A stretch of DNA of 64,000 bases, taken from contig DATDCV010000045.1 of assembly GCA_036524155.1 (NCBI GenBank), positions 260 through 64,259 of the forward strand, given 5' to 3'. A program made the translations under genes and the position numbers. Of this stretch, positions 45,045 through 64,000 are shown one piece after another. This stretch comes from Verrucomicrobiia bacterium (GTDB taxonomy: Bacteria > Verrucomicrobiota > Verrucomicrobiia > Limisphaerales > UBA8199). Within the stretch, counting starts at the first letter, position 1, and each line of letters opens with the position of its first letter. Below the pieces are notes generated by a model. That model was given only the letters and a program-made list of their open reading frames with translations, was not told the origin of the DNA and did not search any database.

Positions 45045-45157
45045 GTAACGAGGCCGTTTGGTGTTGAACATCGGGGCATGGCGGTTCATTCTGAACATGG
45101 CGCGCTCAAAAGTCCTGCGCGCACAGTCGTGAGATGCATTCGCTCCATCAGCTTCGT

Positions 45158-46798: not shown

Positions 46799-46806
46799 CT
46801 CGGCGT

Positions 46807-46878
46807 CGGACCGCCGACATGTTGTCGGCTTATGCGGTCGGTGCGGCGTAAGCCGACAACATGTCGGCGCTCCGGTCC
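46807..46878. repeat. Short variant of the MITE core (long near-perfect hairpin)
   Basis: cggaccgccgacatgttgtcggctta ... taagccgacaacatgtcggcgctccggtcc, 9 nt after the stop of the phosphodiesterase gene. Confidence 0.75.
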
Positions 46879-48529: not shown

Positions 48530-48543
48530 CCGGAAAGGACCCT

Positions 48544-49275
48544 ATGGGACGCCAGTGGCTCCACGCCAAACGGGAAGTCGCCTCCATGAAGAAGGCCCAG
48601 GCGACCGGCAAAATCGTCCGCGAGATCATGGTCGCCGCCAAAATGGGCGGGCCGGATCCCGCCAGCAACGCGCGGTTGTCTGCGGCGGTTGAAAAGGCGC
48701 GGAAAGAAAGCGTGTCGCGCGACGTCATCGAGCGCGCGATCAAAAAGGGCGCGGGCGTCGGCGAAGAAAAGCTGGTGATGGAGCACGTCCTCTTCGAAGG
48801 CTACGCGCCCCATAAGGTGCCGGTCATCGTCGAGGTTTACACGGATAACGTGAACCGGACCGCCCCCGAAATCCGGAACATCTTTCGCAAAGGCCAGCTC
48901 GGCACCGCCGGCAGCAACAAATTTCTTTTCGACCACACCGGGATCGTCGAAGCCTATCACCCGGATCCGAACACCGATATCGAGGCCGCCGCCATCGAGG
49001 CCGGCGCCAATGAGGTCGAACCGCTGTCCCGCAGCCAAAACGACGACATCCCTGAAGGTTCTGCCGGCGCCCGTTTGCTGGCTGACCGCGCCAGCGTCCA
49101 CGCTGTTTCCAAGTGGCTGTCGCAAAACGGCTGGAAGGTCGTCACCAGCGAGATCGGGTTCGTGCCGAAAAACTACCCCGAGCTTACCGACCAGCAACGC
49201 GCCGAGGCCGGCGAGTTCCTGCAATCCCTCGACGACCACGACGATGTCCATCGCGTCTGGGCCGCGCTGAAGTAG
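48544..49275 (+). CDS. yebC: YebC/PmpR-family DNA-binding regulator
   Basis: WLHAKREVASMKKAQATGKIVREI...GPDPASNARL matches the YebC family as I know it. Trimmed to ATG 48544. Confidence 0.9.
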   Translation: MGRQWLHAKREVASMKKAQATGKIVREIMVAAKMGGPDPASNARLSAAVEKARKESVSRDVIERAIKKGAGVGEEKLVMEHVLFEGYAPHKVPVIVEVYTDNVNRTAPEIRNIFRKGQLGTAGSNKFLFDHTGIVEAYHPDPNTDIEAAAIEAGANEVEPLSRSQNDDIPEGSAGARLLADRASVHAVSKWLSQNGWKVVTSEIGFVPKNYPELTDQQRAEAGEFLQSLDDHDDVHRVWAALK

Positions 49276-49695: not shown

Positions 49696-51219
49696 ATGAA
49701 AACCCTCGCCATCATTCTCGTGCTCGCCGCCTCCTACCTGGCCGCCCTGGGCCAGGGGCAGGTGCAGTTCCAGAACTACGTTCCGTCCACCACGCCAGCG
49801 ATCGATGCGCCGGTGTATTTGTACCATATGGGCGGCGCACGCCCGGATTATAGCAATCCCTTGTGGCGGGTCGCCTTGCTTGGCGGGCCAACCACGGCCA
49901 CCCCAGCCTCTTCAACGAACGTGGGTACGCTCAGCCAGTTGTATCATCCCACAATCACGAGCCTCACCTGGTTCAACTTCGGCATGGGCACTAATGCCGG
50001 CTATGCAGACGTTCGCACGAACGCTGCCAGGGTTGTCCCCGGTGTGGACTGGGGCGGCACCGCCCTGGTTCAAGTGGTGGCCTGGGAGGGCAACTACTAT
50101 GACTGGGCTGACGCCTACTCCTGGGCGGTGTCCGGCGGCCCTTATGTGCTCATTGGCATGTCAAACCCGCTGACTTTGAGGTTGCCCAACGGCCCTACGG
50201 ACGGAAACCTCACCTTCCTCTGGGGTTTGAACTCTTTCGCACTGGGGTGGGCTGGAGGTCCGTCCTTCTGGAGTTACACGGGACCAGCAGACCAAACAGT
50301 CAGTGCCGGCGATCCCGTAACACTAGCCGTTTCTGTCGATGCCTGGCCCGTTCCTGATTTCCAATGGTATTTCAATGGGGTTGCCCTCGCGGGAGCCAAC
50401 TCGAGTTGCCTCCAAATCCCGAGCGCCCAGCCGACGGACGCGGGCAGTTACTATGCAATTCTGACGGATCCCATGTTTTTGCTTTGGACTTACACCACTG
50501 GTGTCGCCACAGTGACAGTGCGGGTGCCCCCGGGTATCGCGTTACAGCCTCAAAGCCAGACGGCAGTCGCCGGCTCCGGCACCGTGTTTCGGGTAAGCGC
50601 GACTGGCGACGCGCCTTTGGGCTGCCAATGGTTCTTCAACGGCAGCACCCCGCTCGGCACGGGGACTTCGCTCAAGCTCACCGCGCTCGAATCCCGGAAC
50701 ATCGGCGCCTACACGGTGGTCGTCACCAATGTTTGGGGCGCCGTCACCAGCACGCCGGCGATGCTGAATGTGATTGCACCGGTGGACACGACCCGGGCCC
50801 TTGGTGTCGTTGGCACCGCCCAGAACGGGACCGCTATGAACCTGGAGACCGCCAGGCAATTATCCGGGGCGCCGAGCTGGCTACCGCTGGTCGAAAACGT
50901 GATGGCCGGAACCAACACCAGCCAGGTGTATGTCGATTGGCCCATGCAGCCGGCCCCTGACTTCCTGCGGCTTTACCGGGCATGGCAGACGAATGGTGTG
51001 AACCAGCCGCCGATGTTGAGCATCCACCTGGTTTCGGGGATCACGTTAACCGGAACCGCTGGCAGCTCGGTGCGCATCGATTACATCAACCAAATCGGCC
51101 CGACGGATGCCTGGGTGACGCTGGCGACTGTCCCGCTGACCAACACCTCGCAACTTTACTTCGACACTTCAGCCATCGGCCCGCCGCCGAGGCTGTACCG
51201 GCTGGTGTCGCCGCCGTAG
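49696..51219 (+). CDS. Secreted mosaic protein S1: signal peptide, GQVQF-N-domain, 2 Ig-like domains, common C-terminal domain
   Basis: MKTLAIILVLAASYLAALGQGQVQFQNY. FQWYFNG and CQWFFNG are I-set-like Ig motifs. Ends VRIDYINQIGPTDAWVTLATV...RLYRLVSPP. Confidence 0.88.
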   Translation: MKTLAIILVLAASYLAALGQGQVQFQNYVPSTTPAIDAPVYLYHMGGARPDYSNPLWRVALLGGPTTATPASSTNVGTLSQLYHPTITSLTWFNFGMGTNAGYADVRTNAARVVPGVDWGGTALVQVVAWEGNYYDWADAYSWAVSGGPYVLIGMSNPLTLRLPNGPTDGNLTFLWGLNSFALGWAGGPSFWSYTGPADQTVSAGDPVTLAVSVDAWPVPDFQWYFNGVALAGANSSCLQIPSAQPTDAGSYYAILTDPMFLLWTYTTGVATVTVRVPPGIALQPQSQTAVAGSGTVFRVSATGDAPLGCQWFFNGSTPLGTGTSLKLTALESRNIGAYTVVVTNVWGAVTSTPAMLNVIAPVDTTRALGVVGTAQNGTAMNLETARQLSGAPSWLPLVENVMAGTNTSQVYVDWPMQPAPDFLRLYRAWQTNGVNQPPMLSIHLVSGITLTGTAGSSVRIDYINQIGPTDAWVTLATVPLTNTSQLYFDTSAIGPPPRLYRLVSPP

Positions 51220-51449
51220 CGCGCAATGGATGAAGGGCCAAGGATGAAGAAGGTTACGGAAGAACGAAAGGACCTCCTCTCCCCGGCCCTCTCCTCCAGA
51301 GGAGGAGAGGGCGACGGCGGGCGGGGCTTATTCCCTTTCTGCGCCGGCAGATGGGAGGGAGAAAGCCGGTGCGAATTGGTCCCCCTCTCCGCCTTTGGGG
51401 GAGAGGGGACAGGGGAGAGGTGGCCGTCGAAAAACTGTTTACGCACTCT
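51220..51449. repeat. Conserved intergenic cassette (short form)
   Basis: ggttacggaagaacgaaaggacctcctctccccggccctctcctcc hairpin module plus the GEG hairpin (51381-51425). Shared with three other intergenic regions. Confidence 0.85.
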
Positions 51450-52964
51450 ATGAAAACTTTCGCCATCACTCTCGTGCTCGCCGCCTCCTGCCTGTCCGCG
51501 CCGGCCCAGGGGCAAGTGCAATTCCGGAATTATGTTTCGAACACAACGCCCGCAGTCGATGCGCGGGTGTCCCTCGGGGGCGCCTCAGGGCCTTTTCCTG
51601 ACTCGAGCAATACTGCCTGGCGCGCCGCGCTGCTCGGGGGGCCGACGACCGCGACACCGGCCTCCACGGAGGGTCCGGGCACGCTCAGCCTGTTGCACCA
51701 TCCCACGATAACGACCCTGACCTGGGTCAATTTCAGAAGCGGGACCACGCCCCCTGCGGCGGCCGGATACGTGAATTATAGCGCCGGCCCTGCTCGCGAG
51801 GTGCCGGGAGTGGATTGGGGCGGCACCGCACTGGTGCAGATGGTCGCGTGGCAGGGCCCTTATACGACATGGATTGATGCCTATAACGCCTTTCGGTGCG
51901 GCGTGTTCGATGCTCGCATCGGGTTCTCAAACCCGTTGACCTTGCGGTTGCCCTACGGTCTTACTGATACACGCTTTACCTATCTCTGGGGCTTGAATTG
52001 GTTCTCAATGGCAAACTTGAGTTCTCCCTACTTTAAGTATAACGGAGGACCGGACGATCAGACTGTGATCGCCGGCGATCCCGTCACACTGAGCGTTTCC
52101 TCGGAGGGATGGCCCGCTCCCGATATCCAGTGGTACTTCAACGGCAATGCCATCCCAGGGGCCAACGATGGTTCCTGGCAGATTCTGCACGCGCGACCTG
52201 AAGACGCCGGCGGTTACTTTGCGGTCATGTCGTGGTGCGGCGAGTACACCTCGCGTGTCGCGACTGTGACGGTTCGCTTGCCACCGGGCATTTCTGCTCA
52301 ACCGCAGAGCCAAACAGTGGCAGCCGGCTCGGGTACGCAGTTGCGCGTGAACGCCACTGGCGACGCGCCTTTGAGCTACCAATGGTTTTTCAACGGCAGC
52401 ACCTCGCTCGGCATCGGGACTTCGCTCAACCTCGCCTCGCTGCAACCGCAGGACTCAGGCGCTTACACTGTCGTAGTTACCAACGTCTGGGGAGCCGTCA
52501 CCAGCGCACCCGCGATGCTGAGTGTGGTTGCGCCCGTGCCCATGGCCCTGGCACCGGGCGTTGTTGTTCACGCGCAAAGCCAGACCTCCTGGAACCTGCA
52601 GTACGCCGACTCTTTTGCGCCCACCAACTACTGGATACCCATGGGCGAGATGTTCCTGGGGACCAACACCAGCCAGGTGCTTGTCGATTCGCCGCCGTTG
52701 CCGGGGGCGCAACGCTCCTACCGGGCGTGGCAGCAGAGCAGCACCAGTCAGCCGCCAGTCTTAAGCATGGAACTGGTCCCCGCGATCCGGTTAACCAACG
52801 CCGTCGGCAGTTCGGTGCGGATTGACTACATAAACCAGGTGGGGCCCATCGACGCCTGGGTGACGCTGGCCACGGTCACCGTCACTGGCACGTCGCAACT
52901 TTACTTCGATAAATCAGCCATAGGCCAGCCGCCGAGGGTGTACCGGGTGGTGACTCTCCCATAG
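51450..52964 (+). CDS. Secreted mosaic protein S2 (same architecture as S1)
   Basis: MKTFAITLVLAASCLSAPAQGQVQFRNY. IQWYFNG and YQWFFNG Ig motifs. Ends VRIDYINQVGPIDAWVTLATV...RVYRVVTLP. ORF 51351.. trimmed to ATG 51450. Confidence 0.88.
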   Translation: MKTFAITLVLAASCLSAPAQGQVQFRNYVSNTTPAVDARVSLGGASGPFPDSSNTAWRAALLGGPTTATPASTEGPGTLSLLHHPTITTLTWVNFRSGTTPPAAAGYVNYSAGPAREVPGVDWGGTALVQMVAWQGPYTTWIDAYNAFRCGVFDARIGFSNPLTLRLPYGLTDTRFTYLWGLNWFSMANLSSPYFKYNGGPDDQTVIAGDPVTLSVSSEGWPAPDIQWYFNGNAIPGANDGSWQILHARPEDAGGYFAVMSWCGEYTSRVATVTVRLPPGISAQPQSQTVAAGSGTQLRVNATGDAPLSYQWFFNGSTSLGIGTSLNLASLQPQDSGAYTVVVTNVWGAVTSAPAMLSVVAPVPMALAPGVVVHAQSQTSWNLQYADSFAPTNYWIPMGEMFLGTNTSQVLVDSPPLPGAQRSYRAWQQSSTSQPPVLSMELVPAIRLTNAVGSSVRIDYINQVGPIDAWVTLATVTVTGTSQLYFDKSAIGQPPRVYRVVTLP

Positions 52965-53502
52965 CGCGGAGCGAACAAAGAACCACGGATGAACACGGTT
53001 ACGGAAGAACGGAAGAGCCTCCTCTCCCCGGCCCTCTCCTCCAGCGGAGGAGAGGGAGGAAGCCGGGGCCGGCGGAAGAACGGGCTGCGGCTTCCGGTCT
53101 CCCTCTACCCGAACGCAAGAAAAGGAGAGAGCCGGCGCGTCTGGTTCCCCCTCTCCGCCTTTGGGGGAGAGGGGAAAGGGGAGAGGTGGCCCTTGCATTC
53201 TTGCGCAACCACGTTCATAAGGAGGGCGAAGCCCCCGTTCGACAGCACGGAAAGTGCGACCACTCAACAGCCCTGGGAACTCGGCCCTTGTAGGAGACGA
53301 CGTAAGGAGTCTCTAATCAAGACCAGCAGGTTCCGAGATTTGAGCGCCCTCGCCGTCGGGGAAACCCGAGAAAAGATCAGAGACTCCTTACGTCGTCTCC
53401 TACAAGCCGGAAAGCGAACGCTGTTCGCCGGGAGAGGGGGCCGTGGGTTTATGGAGCAGTCCTGGTAACTATGCGTGTTTTGAAAAATTGTCGATACTCC
53501 CT
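52965..53502. repeat. Conserved intergenic cassette (long form, 538 bp)
   Basis: Collinear with 60003..60528. Contains hairpin modules, the GEG repeat (53147-53191) and the 28-bp inverted repeat. Confidence 0.9.
53287..53406. other. Perfect 28-bp inverted repeat flanking a 64-nt spacer (hairpin RNA or invertible/mobile element)
   Basis: cttgtaggagacgacgtaaggagtctct (53287-53314) is the exact reverse complement of 53379-53406. Lies 97 nt upstream of the S3 start. Confidence 0.9.
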
Positions 53503-56370
53503 ATGAAAACTCTGTCCATACTTGTCGCCGGCGCGTTGGCGCTGGCTTTTACTCATACTGTCTCTGGGGCGCCCGGCGATCTGGATCCCGCTTTTGACAT
53601 CGGTTCCCGCATTAACGCCTGGGTCCGGGCGATTGCGGTGCAAAGCGACGGAAAGGTCGTGATTGGCGGGGATTTCACTACTGTGCATGGCGCGGTGCGA
53701 AACCGCCTCGCGAGGCTGAACGCGGATGGCCCGGTCGATAGCGGTTTTGAACCTGATGTCTCGGGCGAGACCATCGTAGGGTTGATCTTGGCCGGAGACA
53801 AAGTGCTCATCGCGGGGGAATTGGGAACGATAAATGGTGTGCCGCGCGCAGGGGTGGCGCGCCTGAACGCAGACGGTTCGCTGGACGCTTCGTTTGCGGA
53901 CGGGCTGGCGGATATGACGAACTCTGCCTATCGGGTCATCGCGCGCCAACCGGACGGCAAAGTGCTGGTTGGCGGCTTTCCTCGTTCGATTGGCAGCAGC
54001 GTCACCGATCTCCACAGGTTGAACCAGAACGGCAGCCTGGACCCTTCGTTCGCACCGGTGCTGACGGGGCCAAACCCGTGGATCGGAGCATTAGCAGCGC
54101 AGAGTGATGGCAAAATCCTGGTGGCCGGAACCTTCCAGGCGGTCAACGGCGTGGGCGCAACAAACTTCGCACGGCTCAACCCGGACGGCTCTTTCGACGG
54201 GTCCTTCACAAATGCTTTAGCTGGACGCGACGAGGAGCCAAAGTGCCTCGCGATTCAACCTGACGACAAAATCATCGTGGCGGGGTACTTTCTTTTGGGC
54301 CAGGTCCAATTGAGAGTCGTCCGCCTCAACCCGGACGGTTCGATCGACCATTCGTTTGCCGCGTCTGAGCCGGACGGCACGGTGTATTCCCTCGCATTGC
54401 AGCCGGACGGAAAGATCCTGCTCGGCAACAATGTCCCGCCTTGCTGCATGCGGTTGAACGCCGACGGAACAAAGGACACCGCGTTTCTGAACGGCCTGGC
54501 CGGACCGAATAGCAGCGTCATCGTCCTGGCCGCCCAACCTGACGGCAAAATCGTCATCGGCGGCTTTTTCGAGAGGGTCAACGACGTGGAGTGCACCCCC
54601 CTGGCCCGCCTGAATACCGACGGCTCGCTCGACACCTCGTTCCCTGAGGGCCCTCCGGGACCGAATTTCAATCTCACCGGGCTGGTGGTTCAGCCTGATG
54701 GCAAAGTGGTCATTGCCGGGTCTTTCTATTCGATTAATGGAGTCGCGTGCTCGAGCGTCGCGCGCCTTAACCCGGATGCCACAGTGGACCAAAGTTTTTC
54801 CCCGCCACCCGTTAGCACTCTCAATGAGACACGCTTGACCCTTCAACCTGATGGCAAAATCCTCGTCTATAGCTGGTACGGACTGAGCCGCATTAACCCC
54901 GATGGCACAGGGGATGACCGGTTCCTCGCCGGAACTTCCGTACCCTTGCACGGAATTGTTGCGGCGGTAGGCCTCCAACCCGACGGCAAGATCGTTGCCG
55001 CTGGCCGGATCCCGTCAGTCGGATCAATCGCCCGGGCTAACCTGGTTCGTCTGAACCCTGACGGTTCGCTGGACCTGTCCCTGGCTTGCAGCGTAGGGAA
55101 CGCCGACAGTTGGCTCCATGCCCTGGCCATTCAGCCCGATGGGAAGGTGCTTGTCGGCGGATGGTTTGACACCCTCAATGGAAAGCACAGGCCGTCCCTC
55201 GCCCGCGTAAACCGCGACGGTTCGAGCGATCCTTCATTCCTGAATGGCCTGGATGGGCCGAATGCAGTCGTCACCGCCATTCTTGTTCAACGAGATGGGA
55301 ACATCATCATTGGAGGGGAATTCACTGCTGTGAACGGCACGCCCGTCAACCGGATGGCACGCCTTCACGCCGACGGCTCGCTCGATGACACATTTGTCGC
55401 CGGCCTGAATGGCACGGTTTACTGCATGCGACTGCAGGGCGACGGCAAGGTGCTCCTGGGCGGCGGGTTTAGCGCCGTGAACGGCCTAACGGCCCATAAC
55501 ATCGCCCGGCTCAATCTCGACGGCTCGCTGGATCCCTCTTTCACGGTCAGCACGGATTATTCGGTGCTTGCCCTGGAACAGCAGCGGAACGGTAAGATTA
55601 TGATTGGCGGCCAATTCGACGTGGTAAACCAAACGCCCAATCGCTTTGTCGCCCGGCTCATGGGTGATTTCTCTGTGCCGTCGATTCTTACCCAACCGCA
55701 GTCCATGACGGTCGAGACCGGCGCCCCCTGCCGGTTTTCAGTGAGGCCCGCGGGGTATCTCCCGGTCGGTTACCAATGGTACTTCACCTCGCAGCAAACC
55801 ACTGCGCCACTCGTGGGCTGCACGAATGCGAGTCTTGAGTGGCCGTCAGCCAGCCCAGTTCTGGCCGGCGCTTACACTGTCGTTCTTACGAACGATGGTG
55901 GAGCCGTAACCAGCGCGCCGGCTATGCTGAGCGTCATTCCATCGGTTCAAAGAAGATCGGTTCCCGGCCTGAATGTGCGGGGCCAGCCTGGCGGAACCAT
56001 CCGCCTGGACTATGTTCCTCTTCTGGCGGATAACCCCGGTTGGGCTGTGTTCGGCACGGTTGAGATGGCTACCGCTTCGCAGTGGTGCTTCGACACCGAG
56101 ACGCCGCTGGCGGCTGCGCGGTTTTACCGCGCCTGGCAGCCCACCGATCCGGTCAACCCCCCGGCCATTGACCTGCGGCTCGTCCCGGCGATTACGCTCA
56201 GCGGCTCGATCGGCAGTTCGGTGCGCATCGATTACATCAACCAAATCGGCCCGACCGATGCCTGGGTGACGCTGGCGACCGTCACGCTCACCAACACTTC
56301 GCAGGAGTATTTCGATACCTCCGCCGTAGGCCAGCCGGCGAGGGCGTACCGGCTGGTGACTCTTCCATAG
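53503..56370 (+). CDS. Secreted mosaic protein S3: signal peptide, ~14 delta-60/DUF5122 beta-propeller repeats, Ig-like domain, common C-terminal domain
   Basis: Repeats of ...ARLN(A/P)DGSLD.SF...QPDGKI(L/V)(V/I)GG.F..VNG. YQWYF Ig motif. Ends VRIDYINQIGPTDAWVTLATV...RAYRLVTLP. Trimmed to ATG 53503. Confidence 0.9.
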   Translation: MKTLSILVAGALALAFTHTVSGAPGDLDPAFDIGSRINAWVRAIAVQSDGKVVIGGDFTTVHGAVRNRLARLNADGPVDSGFEPDVSGETIVGLILAGDKVLIAGELGTINGVPRAGVARLNADGSLDASFADGLADMTNSAYRVIARQPDGKVLVGGFPRSIGSSVTDLHRLNQNGSLDPSFAPVLTGPNPWIGALAAQSDGKILVAGTFQAVNGVGATNFARLNPDGSFDGSFTNALAGRDEEPKCLAIQPDDKIIVAGYFLLGQVQLRVVRLNPDGSIDHSFAASEPDGTVYSLALQPDGKILLGNNVPPCCMRLNADGTKDTAFLNGLAGPNSSVIVLAAQPDGKIVIGGFFERVNDVECTPLARLNTDGSLDTSFPEGPPGPNFNLTGLVVQPDGKVVIAGSFYSINGVACSSVARLNPDATVDQSFSPPPVSTLNETRLTLQPDGKILVYSWYGLSRINPDGTGDDRFLAGTSVPLHGIVAAVGLQPDGKIVAAGRIPSVGSIARANLVRLNPDGSLDLSLACSVGNADSWLHALAIQPDGKVLVGGWFDTLNGKHRPSLARVNRDGSSDPSFLNGLDGPNAVVTAILVQRDGNIIIGGEFTAVNGTPVNRMARLHADGSLDDTFVAGLNGTVYCMRLQGDGKVLLGGGFSAVNGLTAHNIARLNLDGSLDPSFTVSTDYSVLALEQQRNGKIMIGGQFDVVNQTPNRFVARLMGDFSVPSILTQPQSMTVETGAPCRFSVRPAGYLPVGYQWYFTSQQTTAPLVGCTNASLEWPSASPVLAGAYTVVLTNDGGAVTSAPAMLSVIPSVQRRSVPGLNVRGQPGGTIRLDYVPLLADNPGWAVFGTVEMATASQWCFDTETPLAAARFYRAWQPTDPVNPPAIDLRLVPAITLSGSIGSSVRIDYINQIGPTDAWVTLATVTLTNTSQEYFDTSAVGQPARAYRLVTLP

Positions 56371-56645
56371 CACGCAGAGAACAAAGAATCACGGATGAAC
56401 ACGGTTACGGAAGAACGAAAGGGCCTCCTCTCTCCTAAGGGCGGTGGGGGCGCGGAATGGAAAGCCGAAGCCCGAAATCCGAAATCCGAAACCCGAAAGA
56501 AATCCGAAGGCCGAGATCCGAACAGCACTGAAGGCGCCGCAACTGGTTCCCCCTCTCCGCCTTTGGGGGAGAGGGGACAGGGGAGAGGTGGCCCTGGAAG
56601 GTTTGTGGTCCTCATAAACGTTAAACTAAACAGTCGATACTCCAT
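56371..56645. repeat. Conserved intergenic cassette (short form)
   Basis: Starts cacgcagagaacaaagaatcacggatgaacacggttacggaagaacgaaagg, near-identical to 60003-. GEG repeat at 56549-56593. Confidence 0.85.
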
Positions 56646-59600
56646 ATGAAGACTCTTCCCACCGCGCTCGTGCTCGGCGCCTCCTGCCTGGCCGCACTGG
56701 GCCAGGGACAGGTCCAGTTCAGGAACTACTCCTCCACCACAACGCCGACAATTAACGCGCCGGTTTATCTCGACGGCGGAATACCGGGCCAATTCGCCGA
56801 CAGCAGTTGTCGCGCGGCGTTAATCGGCGGGCCAACCACGGCCACGCCGGCGTCGCTCGACAGCGCAGGCACACTCCCGATGCTTTACAATCCAACGATA
56901 ACGACTCTAACCTGGGTTACTTTCCGCGACCCACCTAACGCCGGTTACGTGAACACCGCGAACGCTGCGCGGCTGGTGCCGGGCGTCGATTGGGGCGGCA
57001 CCGCCCTGGTGCAGATGGTCGGTTGGAAGGGGAACTACAATACCTGGGCGGAGGCTTTTGCCGCCTGGCAAGGGGGGGACTTGACTGTGCTGATCGGCTT
57101 CTCAGAGCCGCTGGTCCTGAGGCTGCCCACCGGTCCGACTGACTCCTATCTTACCTATCTCTGGGGATTGAAACCGTTTACCATCGGCGGCGGCTGCCTG
57201 GGCCCCTATTTTATGGGCTTCACGGTGGTGCCGGTGAGCCAGACGGTAAACCCGGGCGAGTCAGTCACCTTCTCTGCGGGCGCTCAGGCGTGTCCGTACC
57301 CCGTCTTCCAATGGTACTACAATGGCTCTCCGATCGCCGGGGCAATCCAAAGTCACTACCAGATTGCGTCGGCTCAACCTTCCGACGCCGGGGACTATTA
57401 CGCCATTTTGTCAGGCGCGGGGTGGGGCTTACGGACCAGCCCAACGGCCACGCTCGCTGTGCGGCCTTACTCACTGAGCTTTATCCAGCAACCCTCGAGC
57501 CAAACCGTAGCGGCGGGCCAGGCAGTGGATTTCCGAGCGGTCGCCGGGGGAGCTGTTCCCATGTTTTACCAGTGGTTTTTCAATGTCACGAATGCCATCA
57601 GCGCGGCGACAAATTCTATTTTGCATTTGCCGGCGGTGTATTTCCCGCAATCGGGCACGTACGAGGTCGTGGTCAGCAACGCCGTCGGCGCCATAACCAG
57701 TTCCCCGGCCCTGTTGACAGTGCTGGATCCTTACATTTCCAGGCAGCCAAACGATCTGTCACTCCGTGCCGGCCAAACAGCATTTTTATCGGTTGACGCC
57801 GGAGGCTCGCCACTGCTGAGCTGTCAATGGCTGAAGGATGGCGCGTTATTGAGCGATGGCGGCAACCTGTCAGGCGCACGTACGCCCGTCTTAACAATCT
57901 CGAACGTTCTGGGCGCGGACGCCGGAGGTTACGCGGCATGGGTCAGCAATCTCTATGGCGCGGCCACCAGCGCGGTGGCGCGCGTGACGGTGCAGGATCC
58001 GTTCATCACCAGCCAGCCCGTCGGCCAGCGGGTTAATGAAGGTGACGACGTGGTCTTCAGTGTCCAGGCGGGCGGCACAGCGCCGCTCGCGTTCCAATGG
58101 TTGAAAGATGGGGTGCCCCTGGCCGACGAGCTCAACGTGTCCGGGTCACACACCGCCACCCTCACGCTGAAGTCGGTGGATAGCACCGACCAGGGCGCCT
58201 ACCGGGTGATCGTCAGCAATCGTTTCGGTATGTTGTCCAGCGCAGACGCGACGCTCGCCGTAGGTCCTCAAGTCAGTTTCGCGGTGTTACACACTTTCAC
58301 GGGGGCCGATGGCAATGAGCCGTCGCCGAATCTGTTTGTGTCGGGCTCGACACTCTACGGAACTACCATCAACGGCGGCTCAAGCGGAGGAGGGACGGTT
58401 TTTAGGCTCAACACGGACGGCAGCGGCTTTGCGGTTTTGAAGAATTTTCCCGTCGGCACGGTCGAGCAAGGAGCGTTTGGAGGGGTGGTTCCCTCTGGCG
58501 GAAGGTTATACGGGACGACCTGGGGGGATGGCACTCCGTCGGGCTGCGGCACGGTGTTCGCCCTGAACACCGACGGCAGCGGTTATTCCGTCCTGCACCA
58601 GTTCACCGGCGGCGATGGCCGTGAGCCTATGGGCAGCTTGCTGGTCCGGGACGGGATGCTCTTCGGGACGACTTATGAAGGGGGCACCTCATACGGGACG
58701 CTATTCAGGATGGACACGAACGGCCAGAGCCTGACAGTCCTCCACAATTTCACCGGCAACGACGGCGCGTATTCCCACTCGGGCCTGGTGGCCTCAGGCA
58801 GCACGTTGTACGGGACCACTGCCAGCGGTGGCAGCTCATTTAGCGGCCTGGTGTTCCGCATGGAGGTCGATGGCAGCGGCTTCGCGGTCCTGAAGGAATT
58901 TGGCGCTGACGGCGGATGGCCGAGTGACAAGTTGGTTCTGTCCGGGCCAACTTTGTACGGCACCACGCGCTACGCCGGCCAAGGCTGCGGTTCGGTGTTC
59001 AAGCTCAACACCGACGGGACAGGATTCACAGTGCTCAAACAATTCACGACCAATGACGTGGGAATCGATCCCTGGGACGGTCTGGTCATCAGCGGCAGCA
59101 CGCTTTATGGAAGCTTGTTGGGGGGCACTGTGGGCATTGGAGCTGTCTACAGGGTCGGCACTGACGATGCGGGTTACACCGTCTTGAAGACCTTCAGCGG
59201 CGGCAGCGATGGGGCTCGTCCCTATGCGCTCGTCTTGTCTGGCGATACCTTGTACGGGGCAACTCAAATGGGCGGCGCCTTGAACCACGGCGTTATCTTC
59301 TCGATGTCCGTAGCTGGGCCGAGCGTGCTGTCGCCGCCCGTCAGTCAGACCGCAGAAGCGGGCACTGCGGTGGCTTTTCGGGCCCGGGGCCGCGGCGGTT
59401 CCTCACTGACTTACCAATGGCTGTTCAACGGCACTAACTTAATCGGAGCCACGTCCACCAACGCACTGCTGCGACTTCCGGCGGTCCAATTCGCCGACGC
59501 TGGCTCTTACTCGGTAATTCTCAGTAACGTTTATGGTTCGGTAACGAGTGCGCCCGCCATGCTGAGCGTCATTTCGCGCGTGGAACGGCGGCCGGTGGCG

Positions 59601-60002
59601 GCTCTGAGCCTGGGCGGTGCGATCGGGCAATCCTTGAACCTGCAAATCACGTCCGCTCTGCAGCCCGGACCTGCCTGGGCGCCGCTGGATACGGTTACAC
59701 TTACAAACAGCGGCCAACTCTACGTGGACGTTTCCCCGTTGTCAGCCGAACGGTTCTATCGTTCACGGCAAGATGAGAGCGCCGGCATCGTTCCCTCCCT
59801 GGCGGTTCATCTCATACCAGCCATCAAACTGACCGGTGCCATCGGCAGTTCCGTGCGCATCGATTACATCAACCAGGTAGGGCCAATCGATGCCTGGCTG
59901 CCGCTAGCGACCGTCACCCTAACTGATACTTCGCAGGAGTACTGGGACACGTCGGTAATAGGCCAGGCGCCGAGGCTGTATCGGTTGGTGACTCTGCCAT
60001 AG
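56646..60002 (+). CDS. Secreted mosaic protein S4: signal peptide, GQVQF-N-domain, 4 Ig-like domains, ~7 GloVer (Gloeo_Verruco) repeats, Ig-like domain, common C-terminal domain
   Basis: MKTLPTALVLGASCLAALGQGQVQFRNY. FQWYYNG/YQWFFN/CQWLKDG/FQWLKDG/YQWLFNG. LYGTT..GG..G.GTVF.LNTDGSG repeats. Ends ...RLYRLVTLP. Confidence 0.9.
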   Translation: MKTLPTALVLGASCLAALGQGQVQFRNYSSTTTPTINAPVYLDGGIPGQFADSSCRAALIGGPTTATPASLDSAGTLPMLYNPTITTLTWVTFRDPPNAGYVNTANAARLVPGVDWGGTALVQMVGWKGNYNTWAEAFAAWQGGDLTVLIGFSEPLVLRLPTGPTDSYLTYLWGLKPFTIGGGCLGPYFMGFTVVPVSQTVNPGESVTFSAGAQACPYPVFQWYYNGSPIAGAIQSHYQIASAQPSDAGDYYAILSGAGWGLRTSPTATLAVRPYSLSFIQQPSSQTVAAGQAVDFRAVAGGAVPMFYQWFFNVTNAISAATNSILHLPAVYFPQSGTYEVVVSNAVGAITSSPALLTVLDPYISRQPNDLSLRAGQTAFLSVDAGGSPLLSCQWLKDGALLSDGGNLSGARTPVLTISNVLGADAGGYAAWVSNLYGAATSAVARVTVQDPFITSQPVGQRVNEGDDVVFSVQAGGTAPLAFQWLKDGVPLADELNVSGSHTATLTLKSVDSTDQGAYRVIVSNRFGMLSSADATLAVGPQVSFAVLHTFTGADGNEPSPNLFVSGSTLYGTTINGGSSGGGTVFRLNTDGSGFAVLKNFPVGTVEQGAFGGVVPSGGRLYGTTWGDGTPSGCGTVFALNTDGSGYSVLHQFTGGDGREPMGSLLVRDGMLFGTTYEGGTSYGTLFRMDTNGQSLTVLHNFTGNDGAYSHSGLVASGSTLYGTTASGGSSFSGLVFRMEVDGSGFAVLKEFGADGGWPSDKLVLSGPTLYGTTRYAGQGCGSVFKLNTDGTGFTVLKQFTTNDVGIDPWDGLVISGSTLYGSLLGGTVGIGAVYRVGTDDAGYTVLKTFSGGSDGARPYALVLSGDTLYGATQMGGALNHGVIFSMSVAGPSVLSPPVSQTAEAGTAVAFRARGRGGSSLTYQWLFNGTNLIGATSTNALLRLPAVQFADAGSYSVILSNVYGSVTSAPAMLSVISRVERRPVAALSLGGAIGQSLNLQITSALQPGPAWAPLDTVTLTNSGQLYVDVSPLSAERFYRSRQDESAGIVPSLAVHLIPAIKLTGAIGSSVRIDYINQVGPIDAWLPLATVTLTDTSQEYWDTSVIGQAPRLYRLVTLP

Positions 60003-60528
60003 CACGCAGAGAACAAAGAACCACGGATGAACACGGTTACGGAAGAACGAAAGGACCTCCTCTCCCCGGCCCTCTCCTCCAAAGGAGGAGAGGGAGGAAG
60101 CCGGCGTGGCTGGTTCCCCCACTCCGCTAGCGGAGCAGAGGGAGAAAGCCGAGGTCAGTTGAAGAACGGGCTGCGGTTTCTGGTCCCCCTCTCCGCCTTT
60201 GGGGGAGAGGGGAAAGGGGAGAGGTGGCCGTCACTTTCGGAAGCGTTCATGGGGAGGGCGAAACCCCCGTTCGACAGCACCGAAGGTGCGGCCACTCAGC
60301 AGCCTTGGGAACTCGGCCCTTGTAGGAGACGACGTAAGGAGTCTCTAATCAAGACCAGGACGCTCCGAAATTTGAGCGCGCTCGCCGTCGGTGGCATCCG
60401 CGAGAACATCAGAGACTCCTTACGTCGTCTCCTACAAGCCGGAGAACTGTTCGCCGGGAGAGGGGGCCGTTGGTTTGTGGAGCCGTCCCGGTTGCGATCC
60501 GCGTTTTGAACAAACGTCGATATTCCCT
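60003..60528. repeat. Conserved intergenic cassette (long form, 526 bp)
   Basis: Collinear with 52965..53502. GEG repeat at 60185-60229. 28-bp inverted repeat at 60319-60438. Confidence 0.9.
60319..60438. other. Second copy of the perfect 28-bp inverted repeat with 64-nt spacer
   Basis: Arms 60319-60346 and 60411-60438 are identical to the 53287 copy. The spacer differs at 12 of 64 positions. Lies 91 nt upstream of the S5 start. Confidence 0.9.
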
Positions 60529-62397
60529 ATGAAAACCCGATTTGTGCGCTATTCACCGATACGCGGCTTGACCGCACTTGTGGTGCTGCTTTGGGCCTTG
60601 CAGTCAGGCATGCAGGCAGCAACGTTCTCGAATCCGGCGCCCGTCCTCATCCTGGACCATACGAATGCCAGTCCCTACCCATCGAGCGTAGTAGTCGAGG
60701 GTGTGGCTGGGCGAATAACGTCCGTGACGACGACTCTCCTGGGACTGTCACACGCCTTTGTTTCTGACGTGGATGTGATGCTCGCCGGGCCATCCGGCCA
60801 ACCCGTGCTGCTGATGGCGCATGTCGGCGCGGGGAGTTCAGCAAGCAACCTGGACCTCACGTTTGATGATTCGGGAGCAACGCTGCCTGAGATGGGGGTC
60901 GTCGTTTCGGGGACTTACCGTCCGACCCAGTTCGGTGCCACGCCGAGCTTTTCGCCACCCGCGCCCGCGGAGCCGTATGGACCCGCGCTTTCAAGCCTCA
61001 CAAACCTGACCGCCAACGGGACGTGGAGCCTGTTTGTGCGCGATGATGCGCTGGGCGACAATGGGGTCCTGACGAAAGGATGGTCGCTCACCATCACCAC
61101 GGAAGGCATCCCCCCGGTTATCGCGCCGATGTCCTCGCTGACGGCCGAAGAAGGTTCCACCATTCGCCTGCCGGCCCAGGTTTCGGGAGATGCGCCCTTC
61201 AGTTATCAGTGGTATTTTAACGGAAACACGCCGATTCCCGGCGGGACGCGCTCGGCCTTGCAGTTGCCGGATGTCCGTTCGACGAACACCGGGGCTTACT
61301 CCGTGGTGGTGGCCAATACCTTCGGGGCCGTGACCAGCGCGCCCGCGATGCTCAGCGTCATTCCGCCAGTCGAGAGGAGCACGGCTCCGGGGCTTTTGCT
61401 GACCGCCGACGCGGGAACTGATCTCTACCTGGAGTACGCAAACTCGCTGACTCCTTCGCCCAACTGGGCCGGACTCGCCACCGTGAGAATGGGAGGGGTA
61501 TTTGGTCCCACTTCGCAGTGGTATTTCGACGGAGTCGCAGCCTCTGCTGGGCAGCGTTCTTACCGGGTATGGCACGACAACGAGGGGAGCATTGTTCCGG
61601 GATTGCAGTTGTACCCGGTTCCGGCAATCATGCTCAGAGGCGTGGCGGGCAACTCGGTCTGGATCGACTATATCAACCAGGTCGGCCCCACGGACGCGTG
61701 GGCGCAGCTTGCTACCGTGGTGCTGGCGAACAGTTCCCAATTTTACTTCGACACTTCGGCAGTGGGCCAACCGACGAGACTGTACCGGGCCGCGACAACG
61801 TTTAAGAACCTGGATTTCGAGCTGGCGGCTGGGATTCCCGCCACGCCCGGATACCCTGCCAGCGCCAACTTCGATCAGGCTCTCCCCGGTTGGAGCGGTT
61901 ACTGCGGGGCGGGGCAGCAAATGGCAGTGCAATACGACTATGAATGGCTGGACACAGCCGGAATCGCCATTTTTGATACGAATTGCGTTTCTGAATCCGT
62001 GACAGGAGTACTTCACCGCCGCTATTGTGTCTGCCTGTATTCCGGGTTTGAGCCTGGCGTGCAGCCTTACCACGATGTCCAAACGTGGCTGGCCCAGACC
62101 GCCCGCGTTCCGCCCAGTGTCTCAAGCATTTTGTTGAACTATAAACGCTCTCGGGACTGGGGTGATGGAGAAATCCAGGTGACGTTCAACGGAATCGGCA
62201 TTTCCTTGCGCTTTGTGAGCTCGGGCCTGGACGGTTCCAGTGTCCTGGGCGGGGATGTCAGCCAGTTTGCAGGTCCGGTTGGAGAATTGCGGGTGATTGC
62301 GCCGGTCTCGCTTTCACATTACCCCTCCCACTGGCGGAACATCTTCATGCTCGATTATATCCGCTTCTCCACTACGCCGTTAAGCCCATGTCTGTGA
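60529..62397 (+). CDS. Secreted mosaic protein S5: signal peptide, proprotein-convertase P-domain-like module, Ig-like domain, common domain (internal), extra ~200-aa C-terminal domain
   Basis: SHAFVSDVDVMLAGPSGQ...ANGTWSLFVRDDALGDNGVLTKGWSLTIT is P-domain-like. YQWYFNG. VWIDYINQVGPTDAWAQLATV...RLYRAATTF is followed by NLDFE...GWSG... Trimmed to ATG 60529. Confidence 0.88.
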   Translation: MKTRFVRYSPIRGLTALVVLLWALQSGMQAATFSNPAPVLILDHTNASPYPSSVVVEGVAGRITSVTTTLLGLSHAFVSDVDVMLAGPSGQPVLLMAHVGAGSSASNLDLTFDDSGATLPEMGVVVSGTYRPTQFGATPSFSPPAPAEPYGPALSSLTNLTANGTWSLFVRDDALGDNGVLTKGWSLTITTEGIPPVIAPMSSLTAEEGSTIRLPAQVSGDAPFSYQWYFNGNTPIPGGTRSALQLPDVRSTNTGAYSVVVANTFGAVTSAPAMLSVIPPVERSTAPGLLLTADAGTDLYLEYANSLTPSPNWAGLATVRMGGVFGPTSQWYFDGVAASAGQRSYRVWHDNEGSIVPGLQLYPVPAIMLRGVAGNSVWIDYINQVGPTDAWAQLATVVLANSSQFYFDTSAVGQPTRLYRAATTFKNLDFELAAGIPATPGYPASANFDQALPGWSGYCGAGQQMAVQYDYEWLDTAGIAIFDTNCVSESVTGVLHRRYCVCLYSGFEPGVQPYHDVQTWLAQTARVPPSVSSILLNYKRSRDWGDGEIQVTFNGIGISLRFVSSGLDGSSVLGGDVSQFAGPVGELRVIAPVSLSHYPSHWRNIFMLDYIRFSTTPLSPCL

Positions 62398-62514
62398 TGA
62401 GCATTGAGGATCGGGGATTGAGGATCGAGAACGGTCCGCTGCGGAGGGCGGACCCCACCGAAGCCTCGCGCGCGACGGCACCATCGCGCTGTTCGCAGTA
62501 ACCGCAGTGAATTG

Positions 62515-64000
62515 ATGAAGTATATGTGGCGTGCAATCTCTTTACTCTTGGTAATTTTGGCTGTTCAAGTCCCACGGACCCTGTGTCAGGCGCAAACCTA
62601 CAGGGTCTTGCACTTTCTCGATGCGACCGATGGTTTCGCGTACGGCCGCCTCCTGGTTTCAGGAAACACGCTCTACGGAACCACGAGCGGTCAGGGGGAG
62701 ATTTTCACGCTCGCCACCGACGGCACCGGATTCACCAGGTTCCAGTTTCCCGGCTTTTCCTCCGATGGAGGATTGGTGGAGTCCGGCCCGATCCTGTACG
62801 GAACGGTTCAAGGTCTGAACGGCGCAGTGGTCTCAGTGAACACCGACGGCACGGGTTTCAAAGTTTTGAAGGCTTTCAACCTCGCTGATGGAGCAGATCC
62901 GCTATCGGAGCTGGTGTTGGTGGGAACGACGCTTTACGGGACCACCTATCTGGGTGGACCGACCAATTACCTTAGCCCGTATGGCTGTGGAACCGTTTTT
63001 AAGGTTAACACGGACGGGACCGGCTTCAGCTCGCTTTGGGCATTCTCAGGAAGTGATGGGCTAAAGCAGCCGCGATCGGCCCTGGTTGTATCCGGAGCCT
63101 CCTTGTTTGGCACTGCCGCCGGTGATGGTTTTCACGGGGGCGCCATCTTTAGGATTAACCAGGACGGTTCCGGCTGCACGGTGCTGAGAACACTCTCTAT
63201 GCCGCTGGACGGGGCGTCTCCGGCGAGTTTGCTGCTGTGCGGCACCACGCTATACGGAACTTGCGGTGCTGGTGGCGCATTCAATCGGGGGACGCTTTTC
63301 CGGCTTGAGACCAATGGCACCGGGTTTGCCGTGCTGAAGAACTTCTCCGGTGCGGATGGTTCGGCTCCTGTGGGGGGCCTGGTGCAGGTCGATGGGACCC
63401 TCTACGGGGTCACCGGTAGCGGAGGTTACGGATTCGCTCCTGGCGGCATGTCAGAGGGCTACGGCACCATCTTCCAGATTGAGACCAATGGCGGGGGTTA
63501 CTTCGTGCTGAAGGAATTTGCGCCCCCTGACGGCGCTACGCCTGGTGCCCCGCTGGCTGCCTCTGGTCACACGCTCTATGGGTCCACCCTGTTCGGCGGG
63601 ATATCAAACTATGGCACGATATTCAGCTTCAACTTGCCACTCGCTCCCTGGTTCATCTCCTCGCCTTCCGACCAGGTCGTGGCAGCGGGCCAGGACGGTT
63701 CGTTTACCGTCACCGCGGCCGGCTCCCGGCCCCTGTACTACCAATGGGTCTTTAACGGCACCAATCTGCTGCGGGCCGCAACCAATTCGATCCTGCAGCT
63801 TTCTTCGGTGTCTTTTTCAAACGCCGGCTCGTACGCCGCGGTCGTGACAAACGTGTACGGTTCCGCCACAAGTTCACCCGCCCGGTTGCGAGTCATCTTT
63901 TCGTCAACGGTGACCAATTGCAGTGAAGCGGACTTGCGCGCGGCGATGGCGGCAGGCGGGGTAGTGCGCGTCGAGTGCGATGGAACCTTCCCCCTCAGCA
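62515..64000 (+). CDS. Secreted mosaic protein S6 (3' end beyond window): signal peptide, ~7 GloVer repeats, Ig-like domain, start of a further domain
   Basis: Not in the supplied ORF track. My own translation from ATG 62515 (MKYMWRAISLLLVILAVQVPRTLCQAQ) is stop-free to nt 64000. LYGTT...G.(I/V/L)F..N.DG(T/S)GF repeats. YYQWVFNG Ig motif. In-frame TGA at 62419-62421 upstream. Confidence 0.85.
   Translation, partial: MKYMWRAISLLLVILAVQVPRTLCQAQTYRVLHFLDATDGFAYGRLLVSGNTLYGTTSGQGEIFTLATDGTGFTRFQFPGFSSDGGLVESGPILYGTVQGLNGAVVSVNTDGTGFKVLKAFNLADGADPLSELVLVGTTLYGTTYLGGPTNYLSPYGCGTVFKVNTDGTGFSSLWAFSGSDGLKQPRSALVVSGASLFGTAAGDGFHGGAIFRINQDGSGCTVLRTLSMPLDGASPASLLLCGTTLYGTCGAGGAFNRGTLFRLETNGTGFAVLKNFSGADGSAPVGGLVQVDGTLYGVTGSGGYGFAPGGMSEGYGTIFQIETNGGGYFVLKEFAPPDGATPGAPLAASGHTLYGSTLFGGISNYGTIFSFNLPLAPWFISSPSDQVVAAGQDGSFTVTAAGSRPLYYQWVFNGTNLLRAATNSILQLSSVSFSNAGSYAAVVTNVYGSATSSPARLRVIFSSTVTNCSEADLRAAMAAGGVVRVECDGTFPLS

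Follow-up and report, generated by a model that had tools for sequence, protein, structure and literature searches.

The window, which is the whole 64,000-nt stretch of DNA analyzed, comes from an uncultured soil/peat Verrucomicrobium MAG of the Limisphaerales/subdivision-3 Verrucomicrobiota. Soils and peat harbor these bacteria in abundance, and almost none of them have been cultured. The window contained a tandem array of six plus-strand genes, S1 to S6, whose starts in the open reading frame (ORF) list were 49696, 51450, 53503, 56646, 60529, and 62515. The six ORFs were confirmed on the plus strand, as a preliminary description of this DNA had proposed, and S1, S3, and S4 matched NCBI gene calls exactly and with equal lengths, S1 being identical to HEY5909460.1. 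The genes are as follows.

S1, 49696–51219, plus strand: 507 aa; signal peptide, GQVQF N-domain, two Ig domains, and C-terminal module (CTD, 50773–51216)
S2, 51450–52964, plus strand: 504 aa; architecture of S1; CTD at 52527–52961
S3, 53503–56370, plus strand: 955 aa; signal peptide, DUF5122/delta-60 beta-propeller repeats (about 53575–55660), Ig domain, and CTD (55936–56367)
S4, 56646–60002, plus strand: 1118 aa; mosaic of signal peptide, GQVQF N-domain, four Ig domains, GloVer repeats (about 58280–59300), Ig domain, and CTD (59571–59999)
S5, 60529–62397, plus strand: 622 aa; signal peptide, P-domain-like module (about 60739–61092), Ig domain, CTD (61360–61797), and an extra 199-aa tail (61801–62394)
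S6, 62515–64000, plus strand: incomplete, since the contig ends here; carries a signal peptide, GloVer repeats, an Ig domain, and the start of the 'VTNCSEADLRAAMAAGG' module

S1 and S2 showed 61% identity over their full length. S6 had been noted to run off the window, and its 3' end is also absent from the assembly, in which the contig stops at 64,408 nt. After its Ig domain S6 entered another cargo module ('VTNCSEADLRAAMAAGG') and not directly the C-terminal module; in relatives of S6, the 'VTNCSEADLRAAMAAGG' module lies upstream of the Ig domain and CTD. Two ORFs of 159 and 160 aa in the S2–S3 and S4–S5 spacers (52989–53468 and 60027–60509) were rejected as genes, because their 81% identity arose only via repeated DNA and their sequences were low-complexity and repeat-derived.

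Export signals and cargo domains

Signal peptides and transmembrane (TM) segments of S1–S6 were assessed by a heuristic check. In all six proteins the n-region was basic, the hydrophobic core spanned 12 residues (mean Kyte-Doolittle 2.3–2.9), and positions −3/−1 had small residues; five began with MKT and S6 with MKY. This Sec-type succession of n-, h-, and c-regions agreed with the earlier statement that each gene opens with a signal peptide and five of them with MKT. By the same heuristic there was no convincing later TM segment in S1–S6, with a single marginal window at the junction of the Ig domain and the C-terminal module in S2. The mature N-terminus, 'QG.VQF', aligned to the position following 'AFA' of PEP-CTERM homologs. 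Judging from their sequences, S1–S6 look Sec-exported and non-membrane-spanning. A lipoprotein reading was rejected, because the Cys of the S2 and S4 signal peptides lacked conservation, with Tyr in its place in S1, and the lipobox was non-canonical.

Annotation with HMMs supported the cargo domains that had been assigned to the genes, and the calls passed curated thresholds with the exception of the S3 Ig domain. S3 matched DUF5122 (PF17164) in 13 stretches (E 3.7e-155, 504 bits) and TIGR02608 of NCBIfam in 12 stretches (E 2.4e-112, 367 bits); the proposed delta-60/DUF5122 identity therefore stood, and the proposed count of 14 repeats became 12–13 stretches by HMM. S3 is a clear member of the delta-60 repeat/DUF5122 beta-propeller proteins (TIGR02608, PF17164), a membership that names the cargo of S3 only and is uninformative on the common tail. 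The GloVer repeats of S4 (TIGR03803, E 8e-59, 195 bits, six stretches) and S6 (E 3.6e-36, 123 bits, five stretches) both exceeded the cut-off of 44 bits, and the P-domain-like module of S5 scored 26.6 bits with PF01483 against a cut-off of 21. S5 was rejected as a proprotein convertase of the kexin/furin type, the peptidase S8 domain being absent and the P-domain-like module alone present. Ig domains had been assigned to all six genes; S1, S2, S4, S5, and S6 carried Ig_3/I-set domains (PF13927, PF07679) above the gathering threshold by HMM, whereas that of S3, though it aligned with the other Ig domains of the array, scored 26.6 bits, below the 30-bit cut-off (E 8.6e-6). The GQVQF domain at the N-terminus of S1, S2, and S4 was, as described, a true homologous module, with 61–63% identity. 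The N-domain is described as beta-rich. A Foldseek search of its model against the PDB gave a best E of 0.52 with only generic beta-sandwich similarity, and sequence searches of the N-domain and of the S5 tail against the PDB gave nothing significant.

The common C-terminal module and its family

S1–S5 had in common an all-beta C-terminal module of 144 aa directly behind an I-set Ig domain. Each matched the 144-position family profile over positions 1–144 (1–142 in S5) with E 1e-55 to 1e-65, and the domain previously proposed near the C-terminus of S1–S5 was thus recovered at full length. The module was terminal in S1–S4 and was followed by the 199-aa extension in S5. It was a tandem duplication of a unit of ~66–70 aa (hhalign probability 99.6%, E 1.4e-24), and its AlphaFold2 model was confident and all-beta (pLDDT 91.6, pTM 0.81). 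The module ends with ...R-x-Y-R-L-V-P-x-P-COOH; conservation peaked at the very last residues, with a C-terminal Pro in 162 of 171 modules, and V-x-R-R occurred at the Ig junction in 129 of the 171. The lone FYR-type unit that closes another protein, P0080, was rejected as a unit of the module, since it matched the unit profile weakly (E 0.02–0.05).

Neither Pfam nor NCBIfam gave a match over the C-terminal module at E<=0.01, and a sequence search against the PDB gave nothing significant. When the module model was compared with the PDB and BFVD by Foldseek, no fold in the PDB matched with E<0.01, the best E values being 0.018 and 0.037. The Foldseek matches of this model and of the N-domain model had TM <=0.37 and were generic beta-sandwich similarities; the fold neighbors of the C-terminal module, all weak and non-significant, were lectins, fn3/Ig tandems, and glycosidase accessory domains. 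A literature search found no description of the Ig+double-unit cassette. For the putative anchor of the array, an Ig domain plus the double unit, Pfam and NCBIfam offer no model.

Membership of the cassette family was defined by a full-length match to the 144-position profile, C-terminal placement, and a preceding Ig domain, which stands upstream of the module in family members. In a profile search of the sequence library, 327 clusters matched with E<=1e-30; looser limits raised the number to 572 (E<=1e-10) and 1570 (E<=1e-3). The family was found at 69 genome loci in subdivision-3/Limisphaerales MAGs. It is largely confined to Limisphaerales/subdivision-3 Verrucomicrobiota, with at least 8–10 copies in single MAGs and comparable arrays elsewhere (six genes at locus L007 and three each at L018 and L001). 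Of the 150 top-scoring library matches, about 143 (~95%) had the module running to the very end of the protein, and nothing followed it in 44 of 46 ORFs in which a signal peptide could be identified. In a few members, S5 among them, ~120–200 aa came after the module, which indicated that a free C-terminus is not strictly required. The cargo in front of the module was varied (NHL, BspA-LRR, DUF5122, RCC1, GloVer, PATR, and fn3), whereas the Ig domain plus C-terminal module formed a constant tail behind it both in the array and in about 170 relatives, as expected from the fixed chassis with variable cargo of the preliminary description. No non-family gene that might encode candidate machinery was conserved beside the 69 loci, where only the family itself and antisense shadow ORFs recurred; two recurrent 213-aa ORFs near family loci were without a Pfam match.

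Elsewhere the GQVQF N-domain occurs as a PEP-CTERM protein of ~210 aa. Of 27 homologs of the N-domain, at least 22 had a PEP-CTERM ending, P0082 of the same MAG among them, which indicated that the same cargo uses alternative C-terminal tags. In S1–S6 there was no HMM match to PF07589, and none of the ORFs in the window had a PEP-CTERM-like ending, S1–S5 being without a PEP motif, TM helix, or basic tail.

Repeated DNA and the history of the array

Three kinds of repeated DNA were present at the 3' ends of the genes and in the spacers.

51040–51339, plus strand: conserved DNA block formed by the 3'-terminal ~180 nt of S1 together with the flank that follows; copies at 52785–53084, 56191–56490, and 59823–60122
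51358–51425, plus strand: GC-rich hairpin repeat (CCCCCTCTCCGCCTTTGGGGGAGAGGGG...) in the downstream spacers of S1–S4; copies at 53124–53191, 56526–56593, and 60162–60229
53212–53510, plus strand: element of ~290 nt immediately 5' of S3; it recurs 5' of S5 at 60244–60536

Nucleotide identity within the conserved block was 80–97% in 40-nt windows versus ~45% further upstream, and the best-matching pair shifted along the block. An identical 28-mer lay behind the stop codons of S2, S3, and S4, and the genes had their nearest neighbors within the window solely for their last 204 nt. The high identity of unit B is partly explained by strong amino-acid constraint and GC-biased codon usage. On the basis of the identity profiles and nearest-neighbor tests, a block of ~250 nt across each 3' end and spacer looks gene-converted. 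An inverted copy of the hairpin repeat was located at 5613–5690. The two copies of the ~290-nt element were 86–90% identical, and the element had an exact 24-nt inverted repeat extending to a stem of ~28 bp (fold z = −4.7). Rfam gave nothing at gathering thresholds for the window and the repeated spacers, including this element, and chance-level microRNA/viroid matches at relaxed E; scans for sigma-70 promoters and intrinsic terminators did not exceed the shuffled expectation.

The shared and variable segments of the genes were related in incongruent ways. S1, S2, and S4 were equidistant in their N-domains (61–63% identity), whereas the Ig+C-module cassettes of S1 and S2 were 65% identical and that of S4 was 44–47% identical to these two, and the Ig domains were mosaic. 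Single-linkage clustering of the cargo was too coarse, 138 of 171 proteins falling into one cluster by multi-domain chaining, and a neighbor-rank comparison was used instead. In a ranking of 170 relatives, the cassettes of array neighbors came 9th–158th with respect to one another, S1/S2 excepted. dS was saturated in the Ig domain, unit A, and the cargo, and in all but the 3'-terminal ~200 nt; between S1 and S2 it was still ~0.86. Architectures of the S3, S5, and S4/S6 types had full-length or near-full-length homologs in other genomes, which suggested that most of the shuffling is old and family-wide. By these comparisons, the array members are old paralogs, with the exception of S1 and S2, and S4 is chimeric, a case of real mosaicism in the array.

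Interpretation and comparison with known systems

We regard it as somewhat probable that S1–S6 belong to a Sec-exported modular family of one lineage, in which the Ig+double-unit cassette is a shared localization module, and that the array came from old duplication and exchange. The proteins would be built as a signal peptide, a variable cargo, an I-set Ig spacer, and the 144-aa double-unit C-terminal module. For the cassette, sorting or anchoring is the likeliest role; it would either be recognized by an export or attachment machinery or itself hold the cargo at the cell surface or matrix, and in function it would be a counterpart of the T9SS C-terminal domain or PEP-CTERM. The shared tail probably directs the array proteins to one place on or outside the cell, where they may be surface-anchored and serve as adhesins, and the cassette may be processed, with the conserved V-E-R-R junction as one candidate site. 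Old tandem duplication and domain exchange would have given rise to the array, with only S1/S2 close and S4 a chimera. Gene conversion would have kept the 3'-terminal ~180 nt of the genes alike, together with the spacer next to them, and this shared 3' block would offer homology for unequal recombination between array members. A more specific form of this reading, which we consider rather unlikely, makes the cassette the recognition tag of an undescribed subdivision-3 Verrucomicrobiota export/attachment pathway with dedicated machinery and possible V-E-R-R processing, the 3' block recruiting and shuffling cargo genes by homologous recombination.

The cassette might instead be a shared functional domain without a sorting role, such as a lectin-like glycan- or ligand-binding domain, an oligomerization domain, or a stalk base, of secreted enzymes or adhesins exported by T2SS/Sec. 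The predicted compact all-beta fold, the non-significant resemblance to lectins, fn3/Ig tandems, and glycosidase accessory domains, the further domains behind the module in some members, and the lack of machinery near the 69 loci are consistent with such a role. However, binding domains usually occur at variable positions and copy numbers, whereas this module is terminal in about 95% of members with its conservation peak at the last residue, as is typical of sorting tags, and it replaces PEP-CTERM on the same cargo; we view the binding-domain explanation as doubtful but credible.

The preliminary description had taken the array for a variable surface repertoire and not for ordinary paralogy. 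A contingency locus, in which cargo is actively swapped between a fixed 5' signal peptide and fixed 3' cassette/spacer blocks so that the surface repertoire changes rapidly, would accord with the mosaic near-identity of the 3' ends and spacers, with nearest neighbors inside the window for the last 204 nt only, with spacer repeats and the ~290-nt element common to non-adjacent spacers, and with the S4 chimera. The saturated dS of the Ig domain, unit A, and cargo (~0.86 even for S1 versus S2), the array neighbors that are not mutual closest relatives, and the architectures conserved in other genomes argue against active diversification specific to this locus; moreover, every copy is a full-length gene that has a start codon and signal peptide of its own, and the locus has no recombinase, invertase, or silent partial cassettes. 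A rapidly changing repertoire is improbable, and this strong form of the earlier proposal was not upheld. Its rejection of ordinary paralogy was: simple duplication and divergence of one ancestral gene, with the modules a product of differential decay or annotation noise, would explain same-strand tandem genes with a common 3' cassette and spacers, but is scarcely credible, because the folds of the cargo regions are unrelated to one another and each is backed strongly and independently by HMMs, the N-domain and cassette relationships are incongruent, and the same cargo families bear other tails elsewhere.

This unannotated tail, present in hundreds of clusters and substituting for PEP-CTERM on the same cargo, marks out exported proteins of the beta-propeller, LRR, and repeat types in large numbers. 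A domain model of the tail would re-annotate many 'hypothetical' and 'immunoglobulin domain-containing' proteins, help to predict the surface and secreted proteome from MAGs, and permit phylogenetic profiling for the matching sorting machinery.

Among known systems, the cassette resembles the T9SS CTD of Bacteroidota (Por_Secre_tail, TIGR04183/PF18962) in that both are small beta-sandwiches at the extreme C-terminus, most conserved in their last strands, of many Sec-dependent proteins per genome that carry heterogeneous cargo (propellers, LRR, and Ig stalks) and are often encoded in tandem arrays. It differs from the T9SS CTD in its duplicated unit, obligatory preceding Ig domain, and P-x-P ending, and has neither a sequence/HMM match (TIGR04183, PF18962, PF13585) nor a significant fold match to it. 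Verrucomicrobiota are not known to have a T9SS, and no T9SS machinery (PorU/V, SprA, etc.) was found within the 64-kb contig, the one contig of the MAG covered. PEP-CTERM/exosortase sorting (PF07589; Haft et al. 2006, PMC1569441) provides the alternative tail on the GQVQF N-domain, the cargo it shares with the array. Both PEP-CTERM and the cassette are many-copy families of environmental bacteria, but PEP-CTERM is a short tripartite signal, whereas the cassette is a folded Ig+beta module of ~230 aa. S4 and S6 match the NCBI 'choice-of-anchor' GloVer family (TIGR03803) and are true members by HMM; the name refers to bacterial members that are anchored via alternative C-terminal anchor types (10.1101/2023.03.06.531300). 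Although the putative anchor of the array, unlike that family, is without a Pfam or NCBIfam model, the 'choice-of-anchor' idea of one cargo family combined with several C-terminal anchors suits the array locus.

Domain architecture of the six secreted proteins

The six ORFs of the array (S1–S6) lay on the forward strand at the positions given in a preliminary description made from the sequence alone, starting at 49696, 51450, 53503, 56646, 60529 and 62515, and each encoded the proposed signal peptide, of Sec type in a heuristic check of n-, h- and c-regions. Convincing transmembrane helices were not found after the signal peptides of S1–S6. The domain calls of that description were upheld by Pfam and NCBIfam: TIGR03803 GloVer repeats were present in S4 and S6 (NCBIfam), and the P-domain of S5 scored 26.6 bits against a cut-off of 21. 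The Ig domains (Ig_3/I-set) assigned to all six proteins held overall, with the S3 score just below the cut-off. S3 contained 13 stretches of DUF5122 (Pfam, E 3.7e-155) and 12 of TIGR02608 (NCBIfam), and a peptidase domain was absent from S5 by Pfam and NCBIfam. The cargo modules belong to known families and are unremarkable within them. There was neither a Pfam nor an NCBIfam match to the GQVQF N-domain of S1, S2 and S4, the C-terminal module, or the 199-aa tail of S5.

The modular map was drawn by BLASTP among the six proteins. S1 and S2 showed 61% identity over their full length, S4 showed 52-53% identity with S1/S2 across residues 1-362, and S4 and S6 had a GloVer+Ig part in common (42% identity). 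S1–S5 shared, at 44-48% identity, a ~230-aa cassette made up of an Ig domain and the C-terminal module, the latter being the common domain noted earlier. In S6, a "VTNCSEADLRAAMAAGG" module begins after the Ig domain; the same module lies 5' of a terminal Ig+module cassette in the genome loci L015, L017, L018, L025 and L057 and the protein relatives P0153 and P0168. S6 probably ends in such a cassette like these relatives, the contig stopping before that point.

The module comprises 144 aa, and its halves, units A and B, are mutually homologous (hhalign probability 99.6%, E 1.4e-24), with the approximate unit pattern G..v.lDy......W..L.tVtLt.tsQ.yfD......R.YR. An AlphaFold2 model built with a 27-sequence alignment predicted a confident all-beta fold of ten strands (pLDDT 91.6, pTM 0.81). 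The module had no significant match to PDB sequences, PDB folds (best E 0.018, TM <=0.32) or viral predicted folds. Among 171 cassette proteins, the last residue of the module was Pro in 162 (mostly ...LVPVP) and V-x-R-R stood at the Ig-module junction in 129; the Ig domain belongs to the conserved cassette.

Surroundings, age and mosaicism of the array

The source contig (64,408 nt), nearly all of which the window covers, is metagenome-assembled as "Verrucomicrobiae bacterium" with locus tags VJA21_*, and NCBI HEY5909460/62/63/58 are exactly S1, S3, S4 and the upstream hemB. GC content was even across the window (~0.61), in which neither a tRNA nor an Rfam family was detected. Two housekeeping genes lie upstream of the array:

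47522-48529, hemB
48511-49275, yebC

RNase D and RNA methyltransferase genes are further housekeeping neighbours directly 5'. The array is therefore chromosomal, and signs of a mobile island are absent.

The Ig+module cassettes of S1–S5 shared 44-49% pairwise identity, except S1-S2 (65%). Their closest relatives usually came from other genomes, window paralogs ranking 9th-158th of 170. S3 had full-length homologs elsewhere (P0117 and P0213, 43-44% across ~980-1010 aligned residues), S5 matched P0122 (51% across residues 20-420), P0188 and P0146 matched S4 in its GloVer+Ig+module part, and P0140 matched S6 in its GloVer+Ig part. By the Nei-Gojobori method, dS in Ig plus unit A ranged from 1.4 to infinity (S1-S2, 0.86); this saturation or near-saturation indicated that the array is old. 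The proposed shuffling was real: the three N-domains (S1, S2, S4) differ equally from one another (61-63% identity), whereas the S4 cassette is only 44-47% identical to those of S1/S2, as distant as any family member picked at random. Among the Ig domains, S4 Ig1 falls with Ig1 of S1/S2, S4 Ig2 with the S6 Ig (53%), and Ig2 of S1/S2 with the S5 Ig. S4 is a chimera.

From ~-184 to +60 relative to the stop codon, nucleotide identity among S1–S4 rose from ~45% to 80-97%, the most similar gene pair varying between 40-nt windows. A 28-mer, CACGGATGAACACGGTTACGGAAGAACG, is identical 3' of the S2, S3 and S4 stops and has three mismatches after S1. In several pairs unit B had a dS of 0.6-0.9, below the value of the respective pair for the remaining cassette. 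When 76 family genes were compared, the nearest neighbour of the last 204 nt was another window gene for all five window genes, but over the module's first 210 nt this held only for S1/S2. We read this as putative gene conversion limited to the 3' end and spacer; part of the identity signal comes from amino-acid constraint and codon bias. The spacers contain the following repeats and ORFs:

Four copies in array spacers, with an inverted copy at 5613-5690: GC-rich hairpin repeat
53212-53510 (directly 5' of S3) and 60244-60536 (directly 5' of S5): ~290-nt element, copies 86-90% identical
52989-53468 and 60027-60509, forward strand: two ORFs of 159/160 aa, wholly within repeated spacers, 81% identical

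The ~290-nt element contains an exact 24-nt inverted repeat giving a ~28-bp stem (MFE -123.6 kcal/mol, fold z = -4.7) and had no Rfam match; our guess is a MITE-like insertion, and it could also be a 5' leader or regulatory RNA common to both genes. The two ORFs are low-complexity, repeat-derived sequence and therefore almost certainly not genes; gene finders could mis-call them.

Elsewhere the window contains:

1086-1199, 15616-15729, 20223-20336, 21768-21881, 27988-28101, 42407-42520 and 44932-45045, both orientations: ~114-nt palindromic repeat
40760-40846 and 46805-46891: ~87-nt repeat pair, 78% identical, distinct from the ~114-nt repeat
23386-26151 and 26207-27772, reverse strand: adjacent genes for an AAA_35 protein (921 aa) and a TIR_2 + AAA_35 protein (521 aa)
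39065-40246, reverse strand: 393-aa ORF with three separate PF00334 (nucleoside diphosphate kinase domain) matches
32016-34115, forward strand: 699-aa protein, ABC-2 type permease fused to a C-terminal CPBP/Rce1-like intramembrane protease domain

The ~114-nt self-complementary repeat has at least seven intergenic copies, which share 61-95% identity when aligned in direct register and reach 96% complementarity between copies, with the core TAAGCCGA....TCGGCGCTCCGACCC; it resembles a REP- or MITE-type element of the source genome. The ~87-nt pair encloses the palindrome CGCCGACATGTTGTCGGC, one copy being intergenic 5' of an AMP-binding gene and the other 3' of a phosphodiesterase-like gene. The AAA_35 and TIR_2+AAA_35 genes resemble a conflict or defence pair of TIR-NTPase type, with marginal PADLOC matches only (PDC-S01, E ~2e-4). 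A multi-NDK architecture is unusual among bacteria. An ABC ATPase gene (30550-32019) adjoins the permease-protease fusion gene.

The cassette family and alternative C-terminal ends

A word-indexed search yielded 79 relatives, the sole named one being Limisphaerales, and a genome scan gave 69 loci in MAGs from peat, palsa and soil, nearly all labelled Limisphaerales, Verrucomicrobia subdivision 3, Verrucomicrobiia or Pedosphaera. Discordant labels (Acidoferrum/Acidiferrales, Bifidobacterium/Bifidobacteriaceae or Limnocylindrales) occurred at L002, L009, L019, L030, L037, L052, L058, L063 and L068, where binning or labelling error seems likelier than true occurrence beyond Verrucomicrobiota. When 1.84 billion representatives were searched exhaustively with the profile, 327 clusters scored E<=1e-30, 572 scored E<=1e-10 and 1570 scored E<=1e-3. 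The cassette was not annotated in Pfam (2025 copy) or NCBIfam 20.0, and a literature search found no description of it.

The module reached the protein's last residue in ~143 of the 150 best hits, and of the 46 ORFs from the loci and the window in which a signal peptide could be identified, 44 had no tail after the module. The 199 aa that follow the module in S5 show homology (29% identity) to the corresponding tails of P0131 (E 2e-16) and P0196 (E 9e-9), so that a few family members tolerate a domain after the cassette. Cargo among 41 full-length relatives included NHL/teneurin-type propellers, BspA-type LRR, DUF5122, RCC1, PATR and fn3. Single MAGs held at least 8-10 cassette loci, and tandem arrays recurred at L007 (six consecutive genes), L018 (three) and L001 (three). 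The peat MAG SPRUCE 520 has at least ten paralogs (L013, L016, L026-L029, L031, L032, L038, L039), most with NHL-type cargo beginning 'QEYTFTTLAGP', whose C-terminal modules are 92-93% identical in nucleotides; its expansion is far more recent, or its concerted evolution stronger, than in the window.

The N-domain occurred only in S1, S2 and S4 among the 171 cassette proteins, and its AlphaFold2 model was beta-rich and confident (pLDDT 85.5, pTM 0.84), with no match in the PDB. Of 27 N-domain relatives (~210-270 aa), 13 were pre-annotated PF07589, and in the alignment at least 22 terminated in a canonical PEP-CTERM (VPEP, hydrophobic helix, RRR). One of the 27, P0082, has a VJA21 locus tag, the prefix of the window's MAG, and ends in CPEP...TM...RRPN; in two further relatives the C-terminus is a single FYR-type beta unit, a weak profile match. 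This cargo family thus bears PEP-CTERM in most genomes, but in the present array the Ig+double-unit cassette. NCBI names GloVer proteins "choice-of-anchor", a naming for bacterial members anchored through alternative C-terminal anchor types (10.1101/2023.03.06.531300).

Role of the cassette

We favour, with modest confidence, the reading that the cassette may serve as a localisation module shared by the exported cargo, because its terminal position is strict and conservation reaches the last residue, because many copies per genome accompany unrelated cargo, and because it replaces PEP-CTERM on the same cargo. The main rival, in which the proteins share a domain for binding or oligomerisation that plays no part in sorting, is possible but doubtful. 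No partner gene was found adjoining cassette loci. A rapidly switching cassette repertoire is improbable, since dS is saturated and the architectures are conserved across other genomes, and plain paralogy is contradicted and very improbable.

As a localisation module, the cassette would work as T9SS C-terminal domains and PEP-CTERM tags do; the pairing of variable cargo with a fixed C-terminal tag is already a well-known concept. The cassette lies outside both families, because it matched neither the defining HMMs of the T9SS C-terminal domain nor the defining HMM and motif of PEP-CTERM.
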